The notes under the pieces: model-generated
The model's database searches: none
What the model saw: the letters and a program-made list of their open reading frames with translations, nothing else
What the model was told of the DNA's origin: nothing
Source: a virus
Lineage: Duplodnaviria > Heunggongvirae > Uroviricota > Caudoviricetes
Virus record (IMG/VR): IMGVR_UViG_2522572021_000019
Length of the DNA: 26,196 nucleotides
Reading direction: 5' to 3' (one strand)
Shown here: piece by piece, positions 1 to 25,584 of the stretch
Numbering within the stretch: position 1 is the stretch's first letter
Layout of the letters: every line of letters starts with the position of its first letter
Program-made: the position numbers and the translations under genes

Positions 1-21
1 TTCTATCATCGTCAGATTTTG

Positions 22-60
22 GGCACAGAGCAGACAGTTAGACTGGTTTGGCTCTGTGCC
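22..60. repeat. Perfect 10-bp inverted repeat (GGCACAGAGC ... GCTCTGTGCC) with a 19-nt loop, just 3' of the minus-strand HTH gene
   Basis: Read directly: 22-31 is the reverse complement of 51-60. No U-tract follows on either strand, so it is not a canonical intrinsic terminator. Confidence 0.3.
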
Positions 61-95
61 ATCTATGTGTCAGCTCATATCGGAGCTGGTTTATG

Positions 96-290
96 TTACT
101 CAATAACTCCCGCAAACCTGTAAATCTTGCGTGATGCCCATTTATTTGGGCAGGATTTAATATCAGGATCTGGAAAGTCTGGCCTGTATTTCTGGCCAGT
201 TCTCCTGTTTACGCTGTTCCAGCGAAGAACTGTCGATACTGAAACTCCACAGAAGTTGGCGACTTGTTTAGTTGTCATTAAGTTGTTCAT
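96..290 (-). CDS. Small helix-turn-helix DNA-binding protein, AlpA/excisionase-like (64 aa)
   Basis: ORF-track protein has a KQVANFCGVSVSTVLRW helix-turn-helix-like segment followed by an FPDP...W motif, as in AlpA/Xis-like prophage regulators. Its ATG at 290 overlaps the stop of the upstream minus-strand gene by one base. Confidence 0.5.
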   Translation of the reverse strand: MNNLMTTKQVANFCGVSVSTVLRWNSVNRRTGQKYRPDFPDPDIKSCPNKWASRKIYRFAGVIE

Positions 291-901
291 TACTTTACCT
301 CCTGCGGCGGCTCCGGTAGCGGCATCCAGTGGGTTACTTTCGATGCCGGTTCTTCCACATCGTCAGTAACTGCCCACCATTTGTTTCTCGACCAATCGTA
401 ATACCCTTCGAAGGTATCGCACTCAGTCCAGCCGTAAGACTTCCCCCAACACCAAACATACTGTTTATCGTCCGGCATTCGCTCACTACAGCTTATCCAA
501 CCATCCGGAGTTACCGGAGAGTTGCCCGACAGCTCGTTCAACTTGTAAGTCTGGCTTACAGGTTCGGTACCATGAAGCATGGCGGCGCGGCAGGCGTTCC
601 AGCCTTCATCAAAGCCGACTATGCCATTATTTAAAGACGGACGAACATCTGGCACCATCGGCACTGGCTTGGCTATATATAGCGGCTGAACATACCAGCC
701 CTTTGATAACCAACGGTCAGCAATGTTTTTACTCCGTGTTATTGCCGGAATACCTAAGCCATTGTCTGAATGCAGCCATGCCACCGGTTCTGCTTCCAGC
801 GATACCAAAGCAATTTCATAAGCACGGCGCTCAATATTGTCTCGCACATCCAGACTGCCTATGCGCTCTTTGATTTCTTTAATCAGTTCTTTGTCGGTAA
901 A
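290..901 (-). pseudogene. DUF551-family phage protein, 5'-truncated by the IS insertion (native part about 203 codons)
   Basis: ORF 290..994 has the Trp-rich C-terminal signature ...WISCSERMPDD...THWMPLPEPP. Its first 31 codons (994-902) are the reverse complement of the IS left end, and the native part has no start codon near the junction. Confidence 0.6.
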
Positions 902-926
902 TGAACCGCCCCGGGAATCCTGGAGA
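902..926. repeat. IS left terminal inverted repeat
   Basis: Exact reverse complement of 2187-2211. Confidence 0.9.
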
Positions 927-955
927 CTAAACTTCCTGAGAAAGAGGTAAACAGG

Positions 956-1282
956 ATGACTAAAAATACTCGTTTTTCCCCTGAAGTCCGTCAACGGGCA
1001 GTCCGTATGGTTCTGGAAAGTCAGGGCGAATATGACTCACAATGGGCGACAATTTGTTCCATTGCTCCAAAGATTGGCTGTACGCCGGAGACTCTGCGTG
1101 TCTGGGTTCGCCAGCATGAGCGGGATACCGGGGGCGGTGATGGAGGGCTCACCACCGCTGAACGTCAGCGTCTGAAAGAGCTGGAGCGTGAAAATCGTGA
1201 ACTGCGCCGCAGTAACGATATCCTTCGCCAGGCTTCCGCTTATTTTGCGAAGGCGGAGTTCGACCGCCTCTGGAAAAAATGA
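956..1282 (+). CDS. IS3-family transposase OrfA (108 aa, helix-turn-helix plus leucine zipper)
   Basis: ORF-track protein [19 protein letters not shown]...[36 protein letters not shown]. An A6 run at 1274-1279 spans the orfA stop and orfB start, the usual -1 frameshift window. Confidence 0.9.
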
Positions 1283-2169
1283 TGCCACTGCTGGATAAGC
1301 TGCGTGAGCAGTACGGGGTCAGACCGGTATGCAGCGAACTGCATATTGCCCCGTCAACGTATTACCACTGTCAGCAACAGCGACATCATCCTGATAAACG
1401 CAGTGCCCGTGCTCAGCGCGATGACTGGCTGAAGAGAGAGATACAGCGCGTATACGATGAAAATCATCAGGTGTACGGTGTGCGTAAAGTCTGGCGCCAG
1501 TTGTTACGCGAAGGTATCAGGGTGGCCAGATGTACAGTGGCGCGCCTCATGGCGGTTATGGGGACTTGCCGGTGTTCTCCGGGGTAAAAGGTCCGTACTA
1601 CCGTCAGCCGGAAAGCCGTTTCCGCAGGCGACCGCGTAAACCGTCAGTTCGTGGCAGAACGTCCTGACCAGCTGTGGGTGGCTGATTTTACTTACGTCAG
1701 CACATGGCAGGGCTTCGTCTATGTGGCGTTCATCATTGATGTGTTTGCCGGATACATTGTGGGGTGGCGGGTCTCATCGTCCATGGAGACGACATTCGTG
1801 CTGGATGCACTGGAGCAGGCGTTATGGGCCCGTCGACCGTCCGGCACGGTCCATCACAGTGATAAAGGTTCTCAGTATGTATCGCTGGCCTACACACAGC
1901 GGCTTAAGGAAGCCGGATTACTGGCATCAACAGGAAGTACAGGCGACTCGTATGACAACGCGATGGCGGAGAGCATCAATGGTCTTTACAAAGCGGAGGT
2001 AATACACCGTAAGAGCTGGAAAAACCGTGCAGAAGTGGAACTGGCCACACTCACGTGGGTGGACTGGTATAACAATCGACGATTGCTGGAAAGGCTGGGC
2101 CATACTCCTCCGGCAGAAGCAGAAAAAGCTTATTATGCTTCCATCGGAAACGATGATCTGGCAGCCTGA
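1279..2169 (+). pseudogene. IS3-family transposase OrfB (DDE integrase core) with an internal frame disruption
   Basis: The track splits it into 1279..1587 (102 aa), an out-of-frame bridge 1457..1639, and 1651..2169 (172 aa). 1279 to 2169 is exactly 297 codons; the frame leaves near 1564 and returns near 1586-1589, passing a TAA at 1585-1587. Confidence 0.7.
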
Positions 2170-2186
2170 GTTCACAGATAAAACAC

Positions 2187-2211
2187 TCTCCAGGATTCCC
2201 GGGGCGGTTCA
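2187..2211. repeat. IS right terminal inverted repeat
   Basis: Exact reverse complement of 902-926. Confidence 0.9.
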
Positions 2212-2415
2212 GTCAGACGGGAGTTTGCCATCTGGGCAAAAGCGGTCGTGCAGGTGCTGGAGACATTACCGGATATTCTGGAACGTGACTGCGGCCTGCA
2301 GCCTGCCGCTGTGAGCCGTGTTCAGTCCATTATTGATGATCTGCGCGATCAGATAGCCCTGCGGGTGACCGAAGCAGGTGCGGATGATGAGGAGGAATTA
2401 CAGCAGGAGGAGTAA
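2212..2415 (+). pseudogene. 3' remnant (67 codons, no start codon) of the probable terminase small subunit gene, truncated by the IS
   Basis: The frame ending in TAATG overlap with the large terminase ATG (stop 2413-2415) is open back to the IS boundary and contains no ATG; it reads VRREFAIWAKAVVQVLETLPDILERDCGLQPAAVSRVQSIIDDLRDQIALRVTEAGADDEEELQQEE. Assignment as terS is from position only. Confidence 0.45.
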
Positions 2416-4517
2416 TGCTGAATCAGGAAACCGCAAAGGCAGCACGAACCGATTCAGGTTATATCCTTCGCGCACCGAGACGAATGCGGGTTGCTGATGC
2501 CGTTGCTCAGTATATGCGGGTGCCCATGGGGGCCGGGAACTCAGTCCCGTGGGATCCGCTGGTGGCACCGTATGTTATTGAGCCGATGAACTGCCTGGCC
2601 TCGCGTGAATACGACGCAGTGATATTTGTTGGCCCGGCACGAACTGGCAAGACTATCGGCCTGATTGACGGCTGGGTGATTTACAACGTGATTTGCGATC
2701 CTGCTGATATGCTGATCATTCAGATGACGGAGGAAAAAGCCCGCGAACACTCCAAAAAACGACTTGCCAGAACGTTTCGCGTCAGCCCGGAAGTGGTCAG
2801 TCGCCTGAGTCCGAACAAAAATGACAACAACGTTTATGACAGAACATTCCTTGCTGGCAACTACCTGAAAATCGGCTGGCCGTCAGTCAATATCATGTCC
2901 TCATCAGATTATAAATGCGTGGCGCTGACGGATTATGACCGTTTTCCGGAAGATATTGATGGCGAGGGGGATGCCTTCTCTCTTGCCTCAAAACGTACCA
3001 CCACATTTATGTCCAGTGGTATGACGCTGGTGGAGAGTTCCCCCGGCAGGGATGTGAAGGATGTGAAATGGCGACGGACTTCACCGCATGAGGCTCCACC
3101 AACCACGGGGATACTGTCGCTCTATAACCGTGGCGATCGCCGTCGCTGGTACTGGCCCTGTCCACACTGTGGTGAGTATTTTCAGCCCTGCGGCGATGTG
3201 GTTGCTGGTTTCCGTGATATTGCCGATCCCGTGCTGGCAAGTGAGGCGGCTTATATTCAGTGTCCTTCCTGTTCAGGACGGATTATGCCTGAACAAAAAC
3301 GTGAGCTGAACGGACGTGGGGTCTGGTTGCGGGATGGTGAATCCATCAATGCGGATGGCAGTCGTTATGGTGATCCCCGACGCTCACGTATTGCGTCATT
3401 CTGGATGGAGGGTCCGGCAGCTGCTTACCAGACACTCTCGCAACTCGTTTACAAACTGCTTGCTGCAGAACAGGAATACGAGACAACCGGAAGTGAAGAA
3501 ACACTCAAGACGGTTATCAATACCGACTGGGGATTACCTTATCTTCCCCGTGCCAGCATGGAGCAACGAAAAAGTGAACTGCTTGAGCAGCGGGCAGAGC
3601 CAGTTCCTTCCCGCAGTGTGCCGGATGGCGTTAATTTCCTGGTGGCGACAGTTGATGTGCAGGCGGGACGTCATCGCCGTTTTGTGGTTCAGGTAACGGG
3701 CTATGGCAGCCGTGGCGAACGCTGGATTATTGATCGTTACAACATCACGCAGTCATTGCGCGGTGACAGCGACGGGGAGAGCCAGCGAATTGATCCGGCC
3801 AGCTATCCGGAAGACTGGGATGTCCTGCTGACGGATGTTTTTCATAAAAGCTGGCCGCTGGCCTCCGATCCTTCTCAACAAATGCGACTGATGGCAATGG
3901 CGGTGGACTCCGGCGGTGAAGACGGAGTCACTGATAATGCCTATAAATTCTGGCGTCGTTGCCGTCGTGATGGCCTTGGTAAACGTATTTACCTGTTTAA
4001 GGGCGACAGCATCCGGCGCGCAAAACTGATCACCCGTACATTCCCTGATAACACCGGACGAACGGGCCGACGGGCGCAGGCCGCAGGTGATGTACCGCTC
4101 TGGCTTCTTCAGACGGATGCCCTGAAAGACCGGGTGAATAACGCGTTATGGCGTGACTCGCCAGGTCCCGGCTATGTGCATTTCCCTGACTGGCTGGGGA
4201 GCTGGTTTTACGACGAACTGACGTATGAAGAGCGGAGCAGTGACGGGAAATGGAGTAAGCCGGGTCGCGGTGCCAACGAAGCTTTTGACCTGATGGTGTA
4301 TGCCGAGGCTCCGGTCATTCTGCATGGATACGAAAAGATCCGCTGGCCGGATGCACCGGAGTGGGCGAGCCGGGAAACCTGGCTGGAGTGTGTCCCGGAC
4401 AGTACCGAACCGTCACCCACACCGGAACCGGTATCCACGCCTGTTAAAAAACAAAAACGGAAGAAAACAGTAACTGACGATGTTAACCCCTGGCTGACTT
4501 CCGGAGGATGGTTATGA
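2415..4517 (+). CDS. Terminase large subunit, lambda gpA family (700 aa)
   Basis: ATPase motif VGPARTGKT and a PCPHCGE motif as in lambda gpA; sits immediately upstream of the W-like and portal genes. Confidence 0.95.
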   Translation: MLNQETAKAARTDSGYILRAPRRMRVADAVAQYMRVPMGAGNSVPWDPLVAPYVIEPMNCLASREYDAVIFVGPARTGKTIGLIDGWVIYNVICDPADMLIIQMTEEKAREHSKKRLARTFRVSPEVVSRLSPNKNDNNVYDRTFLAGNYLKIGWPSVNIMSSSDYKCVALTDYDRFPEDIDGEGDAFSLASKRTTTFMSSGMTLVESSPGRDVKDVKWRRTSPHEAPPTTGILSLYNRGDRRRWYWPCPHCGEYFQPCGDVVAGFRDIADPVLASEAAYIQCPSCSGRIMPEQKRELNGRGVWLRDGESINADGSRYGDPRRSRIASFWMEGPAAAYQTLSQLVYKLLAAEQEYETTGSEETLKTVINTDWGLPYLPRASMEQRKSELLEQRAEPVPSRSVPDGVNFLVATVDVQAGRHRRFVVQVTGYGSRGERWIIDRYNITQSLRGDSDGESQRIDPASYPEDWDVLLTDVFHKSWPLASDPSQQMRLMAMAVDSGGEDGVTDNAYKFWRRCRRDGLGKRIYLFKGDSIRRAKLITRTFPDNTGRTGRRAQAAGDVPLWLLQTDALKDRVNNALWRDSPGPGYVHFPDWLGSWFYDELTYEERSSDGKWSKPGRGANEAFDLMVYAEAPVILHGYEKIRWPDAPEWASRETWLECVPDSTEPSPTPEPVSTPVKKQKRKKTVTDDVNPWLTSGGWL

Positions 4518-4726
4518 ACCAGAATGATATCGAAGCCATGATTCAGCGTTATACGGAAGCTGAAATGGCGGTGCTGGACGGAAAATCCGTCACCTTTAAT
4601 GGTCAGCAGATGACCATGGAAAACTTATCTGAGATCCGGCAGGGACGGCAGGAGTGGGAGCGCCGCCTTGCGGCTCTGATTACACGACGACGGGGGCATC
4701 CCGGGTACCGGCTTGCGAGGTTCTGA
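4514..4726 (+). CDS. Head-tail joining protein, lambda gpW-like (about 70 aa)
   Basis: C-terminus ...RRRGHPGYRLARF resembles lambda W ...RRRGPAGFYV. GGAGG at 4503-4507 precedes the ATG at 4514, which overlaps the terminase stop (ATGA). Confidence 0.8.
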   Translation: MNQNDIEAMIQRYTEAEMAVLDGKSVTFNGQQMTMENLSEIRQGRQEWERRLAALITRRRGHPGYRLARF

Positions 4727-6234
4727 TGGCAATTCTTGATGATGTGATTGGCGTTTTTTCACCAGGATGGAAAGCGGCAAGGCTGCGTTCCCGTGCGGTG
4801 ATCCAGGCTTATGAGGCCGTAAAAACGACGCGGACACACAAAGCCCGGCGGGAAAACCGAACTGCCGACCAGTTAAGCCAGTACGGGGCCGTGTCGTTAC
4901 GTGAGCAGGCCCGTTACCTTGATAACAACCACGATCTGGTCATTGGTGTATTTGACAAGCTGGAAGAACGGGTGGTGGGGAAAAACGGGATTATTGTCGA
5001 GCCACATCCGGTATTACGCAATGGGGCCATTGCCCGTGATCTGGCAGCGGAGATACGCACCCGATGGAGTGAATGGTCTGTCAGTCCGGAAGTCACCGGG
5101 CAGTTTACCCGTCCGATGCTGGAACGTCTGATGTTGCGTACCTGGCTGCGCGATGGTGAGGTGTTTGCCCAGATGGTTTCCGGGCGCATAAACAGCCTGA
5201 CGCCTTCTGCCGGTGTTCATTTCTGGCTGGAGGCGCTCGAGCCGGACTTTATTCCCATGACCAGTGATGAGAGCAACAGGCTGAATCAGGGCGTGTTTGT
5301 TGATGACTGGGGGCGTCCCGAAAAATATCTGGTGTATAAAAGCCGTCCCGTATCCGGACGGCAGATGGAAACCAAAGAAGTGGATGCAGAGCGAATGCTG
5401 CATCTTAAATTTGTTCGCCGTCTGCACCAGATGCGCGGGACGTCTTTGTTGTCCGGTGTGCTGATCCGCCTCAGTGCCCTGAAAGAGTATGAAGATTCTG
5501 AGCTGACTGCAGCAAGGATCGCCGCTGCTCTGGGGATGTACATCCGGAAAGGCGACGGGCAGAGCTATGAACCGGATGGTAATGGCAGCAAGGATAAGGA
5601 ACGCGAGCTTACCATTCAGCCAGGCATTATTTACGACGATCTGAAACCCGGCGAAGAAATCGGAATGGTGAAGTCGGATCGCCCCAATCCTAATCTTGAA
5701 ACTTTTCGTAATGGTCAGTTGCGTGCCGTGGCGGCGGGCAGTCGTCTGAGTTTTTCCAGTACAGCGCGCAACTATAACGGCACTTACAGCGCCCAGCGTC
5801 AGGAGCTGGTTGAATCCACTGATGGCTACCTGATCCTGCAGGACTGGTTTATTGGTGCCGTCACCCGCCCGATGTATCGTGCCTGGCTGAAACAGGCTGT
5901 GGCATCCGGTGTTATCAGGCTACCCCGCGATCTTGATCGTTCTTCACTGTATACCGCGGTGTATTCCGGACCGGTGATGCCGTGGATTGACCCTGTTAAG
6001 GAGGCTGAGGCCTGGAAAATTCAGATTCGTGGTGGAGCGGCGACAGAATCAGACTGGGTACGTGCAGGTGGTCGTAATCCGGATGATGTCAAACGTCGGC
6101 GCAAGGCCGAAATTGATGAAAACCGCAAGCTGGATCTGGTATTTGATACCGATCCGGCCAGTGATAAAGGAGGCAGCAGTGCCGCAACGAAACGACAGGA
6201 GCCGCAGCACACCGACGACCAGTCCGAAGAATAA
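4726..6234 (+). CDS. Portal protein, lambda gpB-like (about 502 aa)
   Basis: Shared motifs with lambda B as recalled (RWSEW, DGEVFAQ, SELTAARIAA, IDPVKEAEAW). The ATG at 4726 overlaps the W-like stop; the longer track ORF from 4654 is probably not the true start. Confidence 0.9.
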   Translation: MAILDDVIGVFSPGWKAARLRSRAVIQAYEAVKTTRTHKARRENRTADQLSQYGAVSLREQARYLDNNHDLVIGVFDKLEERVVGKNGIIVEPHPVLRNGAIARDLAAEIRTRWSEWSVSPEVTGQFTRPMLERLMLRTWLRDGEVFAQMVSGRINSLTPSAGVHFWLEALEPDFIPMTSDESNRLNQGVFVDDWGRPEKYLVYKSRPVSGRQMETKEVDAERMLHLKFVRRLHQMRGTSLLSGVLIRLSALKEYEDSELTAARIAAALGMYIRKGDGQSYEPDGNGSKDKERELTIQPGIIYDDLKPGEEIGMVKSDRPNPNLETFRNGQLRAVAAGSRLSFSSTARNYNGTYSAQRQELVESTDGYLILQDWFIGAVTRPMYRAWLKQAVASGVIRLPRDLDRSSLYTAVYSGPVMPWIDPVKEAEAWKIQIRGGAATESDWVRAGGRNPDDVKRRRKAEIDENRKLDLVFDTDPASDKGGSSAATKRQEPQHTDDQSEE

Positions 6235-24993: not shown

Positions 24994-25584
24994 TTATATG
25001 TCAGGTGTCTGAAGTTTTGCTTTGGCTCTTAAAATGGTTTGCCGCGAGGTTTTGAATTCCCGGGCAATGGCACTTATACTTACACCTGACTTAATCCGTT
25101 CGAATACCACCTGTTTCTGTTCTTCATTTAACACAGGTGGTCGACCAAAACGTTTCCCTGCGCCCCGGGCTCTTACTATCCCGGAATGAGTGCGTTCAAG
25201 TAAAAGGTCTCGTTCAAATTCAGCGACTGCTGAAATTACTTGCATCATCATTTTTCCTGTTGGACTGGTCAGGTCAATGCCCCCCAATGCTAAGCAATGC
25301 ACTCTGATACCTGTTTCGGTCAGTTGTTCCACTGTTTTCCTGATATCCATTGCATTACAACCAAGGCGATCCAGTTTTGTCACAATCAATTGATCACCAC
25401 ATTTCAGGCGAGCAAGCAACCGGTTAAAACCAGGACGCTCACTGGTTGCTGCTGAGCCGCTAATGTGTTCTTCGATTATTTGCTGAGGTTTGATTTTAAA
25501 ACCTGCACTTTCGATTTCCCGGCGTTGATTTTCGGTGGTCTGATCCAGCGTTGATATCCGACAGTAAGCAAAAATTCGAGACAT
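24994..25584 (-). CDS. Small serine recombinase, resolvase/invertase family (196 aa)
   Basis: N-terminal catalytic region YCRISTLDQ (active-site Ser) and [12 protein letters not shown], plus a C-terminal helix-turn-helix ([19 protein letters not shown]). The N-terminus does not resemble the Pin/Gin/Hin group as I recall it. Confidence 0.9.

Follow-up and report, generated by a model that had tools for sequence, protein, structure and literature searches.

An IS629-group insertion sequence at the edge of a deletion of about 17 kb in a lambdoid prophage of Escherichia coli O145:H28

The viral record IMGVR_UViG_2522572021_000019, a stretch of 26,196 nucleotides that is referred to in full as the window, is matched over its positions 1-4600 at 100% identity by the chromosomes of Escherichia coli O145:H28 strains RM12581 and RM13514, where it belongs to a lambdoid prophage bounded by the chromosomal neighbours yjjG and prfC. 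Near the left end of the window, an insertion sequence (IS) of the IS629 group stands between a truncated DUF551 gene and the last codons of a small-terminase gene (terS), and comparison with intact prophages at the same site places a loss of about 17 kb precisely at this point. That an IS insertion and a deletion of this size took place at all is virtually beyond doubt, and a one-ended deletion proceeding from the left IS terminus is favoured, with moderate confidence, as the mechanism. A first-pass annotation made from the DNA letters had proposed that the prophage lacks terS, the cos site and whatever lay upstream of them; this was upheld, and the damage exceeds what had been claimed, extending to immunity, replication, the Q antiterminator with the presumed late promoter, and lysis. 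The features on which the argument turns are as follows.

Positions 290 to 901, minus strand: DUF551 gene, truncated by 9 bp at its 5' end (Pfam DUF551, E 5.5e-17)
Positions 899 to 903, no strand: left deletion junction, with flank AAA; IS-free genomes match the window through position 903
Positions 902 to 2211, plus strand: IS629-group, IS3-family insertion sequence of 1,310 bp, with inverted repeats, orfA/orfB and an ALIL pseudoknot
Positions 902 to 926, plus strand: left terminal inverted repeat (IRL), TGAACCGCCCCGGGAATCCTGGAGA
Positions 2187 to 2211, plus strand: right terminal inverted repeat (IRR), perfect complement of IRL
Positions 2212 to 2214, plus strand: GTC, surviving right-hand copy of a 3-bp target duplication (strain 7784 has GTC/IS/GTC at the same nucleotide)
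Positions 2212 to 2415, plus strand: 3' fragment of a putative Nu1-like small-terminase gene (DUF1441), the last 67 of 163 codons and the stop

The Missing Interval

In strain Ec1120 the same chromosomal site is occupied by an intact prophage, in which window positions 1-903 are matched at 100% and positions 2212-5248 at 98.7%, so that both IS flanks are accounted for within a single prophage; the 16,965 bp that separate the two matches in Ec1120 are missing from the window prophage. Measured against strain RM12761, the missing interval amounts to about 18.1 kb, a figure that includes a truncated, inverted IS629-like copy. This copy (L006 34630-35803) lacks its first ~136 bp and lies in the early region, which is therefore also an IS target in this prophage family.

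The missing interval comprises the early genes yfdS/R/Q/P, a LexA-family cI-like repressor, cro-like and cII-like genes, replication and helix-turn-helix (HTH) genes, PerC, RusA, KilA-N, DUF968 and the Q antiterminator (ydfT). Further contents are the csp and gnsB cargo genes, the lysis genes for holin, lysozyme and Rz, the cos region and terS codons 1-97. The late-promoter region, whose presumed position is just downstream of Q, would have been lost as well.

At the left edge, the alignment to RM12761 puts the native start of the DUF551 gene 9 bp past the junction, and the gene has thus lost three codons (ATG ACC ACA) together with its upstream operon. The first-pass annotation had located the only start codon of this gene inside the IS, which stands insofar as the native ATG is gone and the longest open reading frame (ORF) begins at a TTG within the IS (window 994). 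It does not stand as worded, for in-frame starts persist in the native DNA at CTG 886 (the choice of the Prokaryotic Genome Annotation Pipeline, PGAP), GTG 847, TTG 808 and ATG 658.

Identity of the Small-Terminase Fragment

The reading frame to the right of the IS (2212-2412) consists of 67 codons without a single Met codon, and its stop codon overlaps the ATG of the large-terminase gene terL as TAATG at 2413-2417, as had been described. Its assignment to the C-terminus of a small terminase was borne out by matches to the C-terminal parts of two profiles, namely Pfam DUF1441 (profile positions 94-146 of 147, E 1.6e-12) and PHROG 141 "terminase small subunit" (positions 110-176 of 183, E 1e-28), for which an intact relative scores 4.6e-44 and 2.7e-77, respectively. 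In the sister strain RM12761 the gene is intact at 163 codons, with a 3' end 100% identical to the window fragment, and set against it codons 1-97 are absent from the window, confirming that the 5' end of the gene was removed. PGAP labels the fragment "DUF1441 family protein, incomplete, missing N-terminus", and in the records of deposited phages, mEp460 and Ayreon among them, the homologue is likewise entered as the small terminase. An intact terS elsewhere in the prophage would have overturned the argument; a search from int to prfC for other terS-like coding sequences (of the DUF1441, lambda Nu1 and cdtI/Tritos types) returned none beyond the fragment.

To our knowledge, no biochemistry exists for the DUF1441 family, and lambda Nu1 and the DUF1441 protein are only distantly related, being linked by reciprocal profile matches. 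Nu1 itself belongs to PHROG 57 and also matches PHROG 141 at 5.6e-8, while the intact DUF1441 protein matches PHROG 57 at 8.3e-9 over nearly its entire length, so that the reciprocal matches span most of both proteins. A structure-based proof of the relationship was attempted and given up: alignment of the intact DUF1441 protein to the single Nu1 sequence with hhalign was weak (a 45-residue N-terminal HTH at 12% probability), a PDB sequence search with the small-terminase protein gave nothing significant, and a Foldseek search of its AlphaFold2 model against the PDB gave nothing below E = 0.36. The model of the intact relative, of acceptable quality (mean pLDDT 79, pTM 0.39), predicts a strand-helix-helix-hairpin motif at residues 9-46 followed by long helices. 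The small-terminase gene lies directly upstream of a gpA-type terL, with the TAATG overlap, and in intact relatives cosN is placed 186 bp upstream of it. On profile, synteny and cos geometry rather than on structure, the fragment is accepted as part of a putative Nu1-like small terminase, from which the N-terminal winged-helix domain expected to recognise cosB is absent in the window because codons 1-97 are deleted.

The orfB stop of the IS (2167-2169) is in frame with the terS fragment, and no stop codon lies between the two. The earliest possible start for a C-terminal TerS peptide is GTG 2248 (55 aa), at which an obvious ribosome-binding site is absent. Expression of a TerL-binding tail peptide from the fragment is conceivable but unsupported.

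The cos Site

The genome records of phages cdtI and Tritos start alike with GGGCGGGAGCGTCGCGG, and the linear Tritos record terminates in CCCCTGCCACG; in RM12761, CCCCTGCCACG and GGGCGGGAGCGTCGCGG abut 186 bp upstream of the terS ATG. The candidate cosN of this phage group, CCACG/GGGCGGGAGCGT (L002 7516-7545, RM12761), is placed by the ends of the deposited cdtI and Tritos records. Its position falls inside the lost interval and no copy with up to 3 mismatches occurs in the window, which bears out the suspected loss of cos. The distance of 186 bp from cosN to the small-subunit gene in the DUF1441 group compares with 190 bp from the left end to nu1 in lambda, and the order of cos, small terminase and gpA-type large terminase is common to both. 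The lambda cohesive end, GGGCGGCGACCT, is similar to the candidate GGGCGGGAGCGT, with agreement at 8 of 12 bases.

The Insertion Sequence

As the first-pass annotation had it, the element at 902-2211 is bounded by perfect inverted repeats of 25 bp; the arms at 902-926 and 2187-2211 are 100% complementary over 25 nt and read TGAACC...GGTTCA, with a 5'-TG start and a CA-3' end. PGAP labels it "IS3 family transposase, frameshifted". Its internal features are the following.

Positions 956 to 1282, plus strand: orfA, 108 aa, HTH part of the transposase (Pfam HTH_Tnp_1, E 6.1e-13)
Positions 1237 to 1353, plus strand: ALIL pseudoknot, which stimulates the programmed -1 frameshift in IS3-family elements (Rfam RF01497, score 117.8 bits, cut-off 50)
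Positions 1279 to 2169, plus strand: orfB, catalytic part of the transposase, interrupted (ORFs 1279-1587 and 1651-2169 in the same frame)

The orfA product covers positions 1-86 of the NCBIfam IS3 transposase profile. In orfB, the gain of a G at 1560 and the loss of an A near 1585 bring about a stop at 1585-1587, and the transposase frame is thus broken in the RM12581/RM13514 copy and unbroken in the copies of strains 12E115 and 16003 at the same locus; the uninterrupted orfB found in the sister strain scores E 4.4e-94 against NF033516. When the element is aligned to the 12E115 and 16003 copies, all 21 differences are confined to a 342-bp patch (window 1321-1662), outside which the copies are identical. 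An IS variant that occurs in many records, mostly plasmid-sized among those listed, shares ~99% identity with the patch, which represents either gene conversion from another IS variant or an artefact of repeat assembly or sequencing common to RM12581 and RM13514. Since the frame is intact in the sister strains, the orfB frameshifts probably arose later or are sequencing errors, homopolymer error being a possible source of the two indels.

Junctions and Simple Insertions

The bases just outside the IS are AAA (899-901) on the left and GTC (2212-2214) on the right, and, in agreement with the first-pass annotation, a target-site duplication is lacking. Elsewhere, three simple insertions of elements from this IS group do carry duplications, namely GTC/GTC (L004), CTGG/CTGG (L005) and AAC/AAC (L008), for which reason its absence from the window is a real signal; it is the signature of a secondary rearrangement rather than evidence against the identity of the IS. 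The uninterrupted terS gene reads GATGTCAGACGG at the insertion site. An IS right end at the DUF551 site would read IS/AAATGTGGTCAT. At the left junction the first two bases of the IS, TG, coincide with the next two native DUF551 bases, which gives a microhomology of 2 bp.

Both window junctions were found in 19 complete genomes. The left junction is accompanied by the right one in all 19, and in no genome is an IS at the DUF551 site followed by another right flank; the same junction with a duplication of 3-4 bp was likewise sought among relatives and not found. The GTC duplication was seen solely where terS retains both halves, as in five O157-type genomes (strain 7784 and four others) that carry IS1203, an IS629 subtype, at the exact terS nucleotide of the window and in the same orientation (L004 5990-6010, 7300-7320).

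A second derivative of the locus is present in the O145:H28 strain 16003, in which the IS shows 0 differences from that of 12E115 and the right junction is the same as in the window. Its left junction corresponds to window 70/71, 831 bp further left (L003 5990-6010, 7305-7320), and xis and DUF551 are also gone. This junction reads ATGTGTC/TGAACC, and the IS consequently has GTC on both sides even though its flanks are noncontiguous in every intact prophage. Such a pseudo-duplication is explicable by chance, at odds of 1 in 64, or by a 4-bp microhomology (TGTC), the latter conditional on descent from an ancestor that still had the duplication.

Origin of the Deletion

The favoured sequence of events comprises two steps. 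An IS629-group element would have entered terS between codons 97 and 98 in a complete lambdoid prophage at yjjG/prfC, with duplication of GTC, a step proposed because the identical simple insertion exists in O157-type genomes. A deletion with one endpoint fixed at the left IS terminus would then have taken ~17 kb leftwards, to 9 bp inside DUF551, and removed the left GTC copy along with the deleted DNA. The event would be a one-ended, transposase-initiated "adjacent deletion", possibly assisted by the IS-excision enhancer (IEE, encoded by iee); PMC9943667 reports deletions adjoining IS629 in connection with this enhancer, iee is listed as present in RM13514 (PMC5567499, table), and IEE may have been involved here. 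The locus has the features of an adjacent deletion: one flank equals that of the simple insertion; the other consists of more distant DNA from that replicon, its orientation unchanged; no duplication survives; and a nested deletion, that of 16003, shares the same IS end.

Several points weigh against this account. A simple-insertion intermediate with the IS subtype of the window, whose terS-5'/IS junction would read CCAGTGATGTC and then TGAACCGCCCCGGGAATCC, was not found in any complete genome, and the insertion step is therefore inferred and not seen in O145:H28. The transposase is frameshifted in the RM12581/RM13514 copy, in spite of being intact in the sister strains. The 2-bp microhomology is expected by chance in 1/16 junctions, and neither it nor the 4-bp one of 16003 is decisive, both being compatible with chance. 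The copy-out-paste-in mechanism of IS3 elements alone predicts no donor deletions (bioRxiv 10.1101/2023.06.07.543989), which leaves the molecular step inferred, and the statement that the remnant cannot be induced or packaged is deduced from gene content. The sequence by itself fits a one-ended deletion and recombination between directly repeated copies of the same subtype equally, and cannot distinguish between them.

In the latter case, a RecA-mediated crossover between two direct IS629-group copies, one at the GTC in terS and the other at the AAA 9 bp inside DUF551, would have deleted the 17 kb and left a hybrid IS between unrelated flanks. Its product, an intact IS without a duplication, would be indistinguishable from what is observed, copies are plentiful in the lineage (31-35 matching places in RM12581 for IS-containing queries), and the truncated inverted copy in the early region of RM12761 marks the interval as an insertion target. 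No genome, however, has the IS alone at the DUF551 site, and the 16003 junction would call for an extra insertion and an extra crossover where a single end-anchored deletion would suffice. Because 16003 shares the IS end and the right junction and differs in its left junction, and because the two-copy route needs a new insertion and crossover for each deletion, one-ended deletion is the most economical explanation, and the crossover is regarded as the less likely of the two though by no means negligible. The first-pass annotation had offered IS-mediated deletion or recombination between two copies in place of simple insertion; the deletion itself is borne out, and the choice between the two is unsettled, with 16003 favouring deletion.

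The lineage's lambdoid prophages exchange segments frequently (PMC7067040), and the left arm is nearest to Ec1120 (100%) and the right arm to RM12761 (about 100%), from which a chimera might be supposed, with the int-xis-DUF551 arm and the terS'-terL-tail arm brought together from two prophages by IS-mediated inversion or translocation. Against this, both Ec1120 and RM12761 hold the two arms in the same order and orientation within single intact prophages at the same site, and the flanks from yjjG to prfC are collinear; a plain internal deletion thus explains everything, and a chimeric origin is considered very improbable. An assembly artefact, in which a collapsed IS repeat joined non-adjacent contigs, might be suspected from the 342-bp patch and the two homopolymer indels, which could reflect mis-assembly or sequencing error in RM12581/RM13514. 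Yet the patch is restricted to the interior of the IS and leaves the junctions unaffected, and both junctions recur in the 19 complete genomes, which come from varied accession series, hosts and countries, so that the chance of an artefact is vanishingly small.

Recurrent Insertion into terS

The IS1203 of the O157-type genomes differs from the IS copies at the window locus at 53-58 positions, the figure for the window itself being 58, some of them inside both terminal repeats, and the terS and terL alleles flanking the O157-type insertion differ from those of the window. As both the IS subtypes and the flanking alleles differ, the O157-type and O145:H28 insertions at this nucleotide are probably independent. 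Two IS subtypes would thus have struck the same nucleotide in the same orientation, in prophages at different chromosomal sites, and the boundary of terS codons 97 and 98 (GAT/GTC/AGA) is tentatively raised as a true insertion hot spot for IS629-group elements, although this is doubtful at present. In the O157:H7 strain ECP19-198 an IS lies 48 bp downstream in terS, with a CTGG duplication (L005 6040-6060, 7350-7370), and the nu1 gene of the Sakai prophage Sp4 carries an IS as well, another such strike on a small-terminase gene (PMC2669165). Should the hot spot be true, it would point either to sequence- or structure-directed targeting or to selection for disarmed packaging, and under selection terL and the structural genes would be kept as a shared resource for co-resident phages.

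Strain NZRM4169 (H185, NZ_CP032789.1) has the left junction of terS-5' with IS1203 (~3,785,661-3,785,900) and is not among the genomes with a contiguous IS/terS-3'-terL right junction, which suggests that it underwent a further IS-associated rearrangement. A swine strain (hit H21) was considered as an intermediate and rejected as unrelated, since its IS lies in a gene beside that for lysozyme (rrrQ) and is flanked by an AAC duplication of its own.

The Retained Prophage

The remnant in O145:H28 measures 29.6 kb. Left of the window, nearby, lie int and two hypothetical genes of the same prophage. Rightwards, the order is int, the hypothetical genes, an excisionase-like (xis-like) ORF, DUF551, the IS, the terS fragment, terL, portal and a ClpP-capsid fusion, followed by tail genes, J, Lom, the tail fibre and a fibre-assembly protein; a serine recombinase, ydfK and a DinI-like gene then lead to prfC. 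From terL to the tail-fibre assembly gene the RefSeq/PGAP annotation contains 0 pseudogene flags, in keeping with the earlier impression of an intact head and tail module. The two genes next to the truncated ones are given below.

Positions 96 to 290, minus strand: excisionase-like gene, 64 aa, in the retained left arm (PHROG 1553 "excisionase", E 1.6e-34)
Positions 2415 to 4517, plus strand: terL, gpA-type large terminase, 700 aa, intact, its ATG overlapping the terS stop

The excisionase-like ORF shares one base with the DUF551 stop codon, has weak HTH_17/MerR matches under the Pfam cut-offs and is unannotated in the RefSeq record of RM12581. The terL product matches Pfam GpA_ATPase (8.6e-72) and GpA_nuclease (7.8e-85) as well as PHROG 15.

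Directly 3' of the tail-fibre assembly gene, a Pin/Hin-type serine recombinase with Resolvase and HTH_7 domains is encoded at 24994-25584 on the minus strand. A search beside it for inverted crossover sites or an alternative fibre segment gave no convincing inverted-repeat pair; the idea of an invertible tail-fibre segment was dropped on this ground, and the recombinase may be an orphan invertase. At the other end, the cargo beside int varies among prophages at the same site, RM12761 carrying a 2.1-kb CHAT-domain gene (L006 28461-30593) where RM12581 and Ec1120 have two small hypothetical genes (L001 11024-12000 in RM12581), and this position looks like a swapped moron site.

Consequences and Relation to Known Systems

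Judged from its gene content, the remnant would be unable to be induced, to replicate, to activate late genes, to lyse the cell or to be cut and packaged. The first-pass annotation had held that the prophage cannot package its own DNA, and this holds because cos, a functional small terminase, immunity, replication, Q and the lysis genes are all gone, although it understates the damage. Since int and the xis-like gene are retained, excision would still be conceivable; otherwise, the one role left to the remnant is that of a reservoir with which other lambdoid phages can recombine.

The closest parallels are the IS629-linked deletions of enterohaemorrhagic E. coli (EHEC), namely the structural polymorphisms that Ooka et al. 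(2009) described in O157 in relation to IS elements and the deletions promoted by IEE that Kusumoto et al. (2011) described, both cited through PMC9943667. Shared with these are an IS629-group element kept with one original flank, the loss of kilobase-sized DNA, the lack of a duplication and a lineage for which iee is listed; the present case differs in its IS subtype (the 53-58 differences from IS1203), its O145:H28 host and its yjjG/prfC prophage. Among the lambdoid prophages of Sakai, whose small-terminase gene is named nu1 in the O157 literature (PMC2669165), Sp4 resembles the window prophage in that an insertion sequence has struck this gene. Asadulghani et al. (2009, PMC2669165) described Sp4, with nu1 disrupted and with cos and both gene halves kept, as packaged in trans by the Sp14 terminase. 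The window prophage has lost cos, the 5' half of terS and the whole early and lysis regions, and rescue of the Sp4 type is therefore excluded for it.

The intact relatives carry Qin-type genes (ydfT, essQ, rrrQ, rzpQ, cspB/F/I, gnsB and ydfK). The cryptic lambdoid prophages of E. coli K-12 (Qin, Rac, DLP12 and e14) are themselves remnants after large internal deletions, which produce no particles and have mostly lost their structural genes. The window prophage, in contrast, lost its regulatory half and kept its structural half.

The O145:H28 genome papers treat prophage deletions in general terms and otherwise mention only the abundance of IS629 (PMC3893438, PMC7067040), and neither of the two describes the DUF551/IS/terS' junction; in RefSeq, both the IS and the pseudogene status of terS are already recorded. 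The case is a newly resolved instance of typical IS629-type erosion, a well-known route of decay for prophages of Shiga-toxin-producing E. coli, and its sole lead of mild novelty is the repeated use of the same terS nucleotide by different IS subtypes. The finding raises no new question and matters chiefly for annotation and epidemiology. For annotation, the 29.6-kb prophage of this outbreak-associated O145:H28 lineage is best treated as a non-inducible, unpackageable remnant, which prophage predictors that score a complete head-tail module will overcall. For epidemiology, the DUF551/IS/terS' junction offers a stable lineage marker that 19 complete genomes share; 16003 holds a nested variant of it, and RM12761 and RM13516 retain the intact state. 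Finally, it adds a further documented case of IS629-group elements eroding the EHEC prophage pool, in which the structural genes are still recruitable by recombination.

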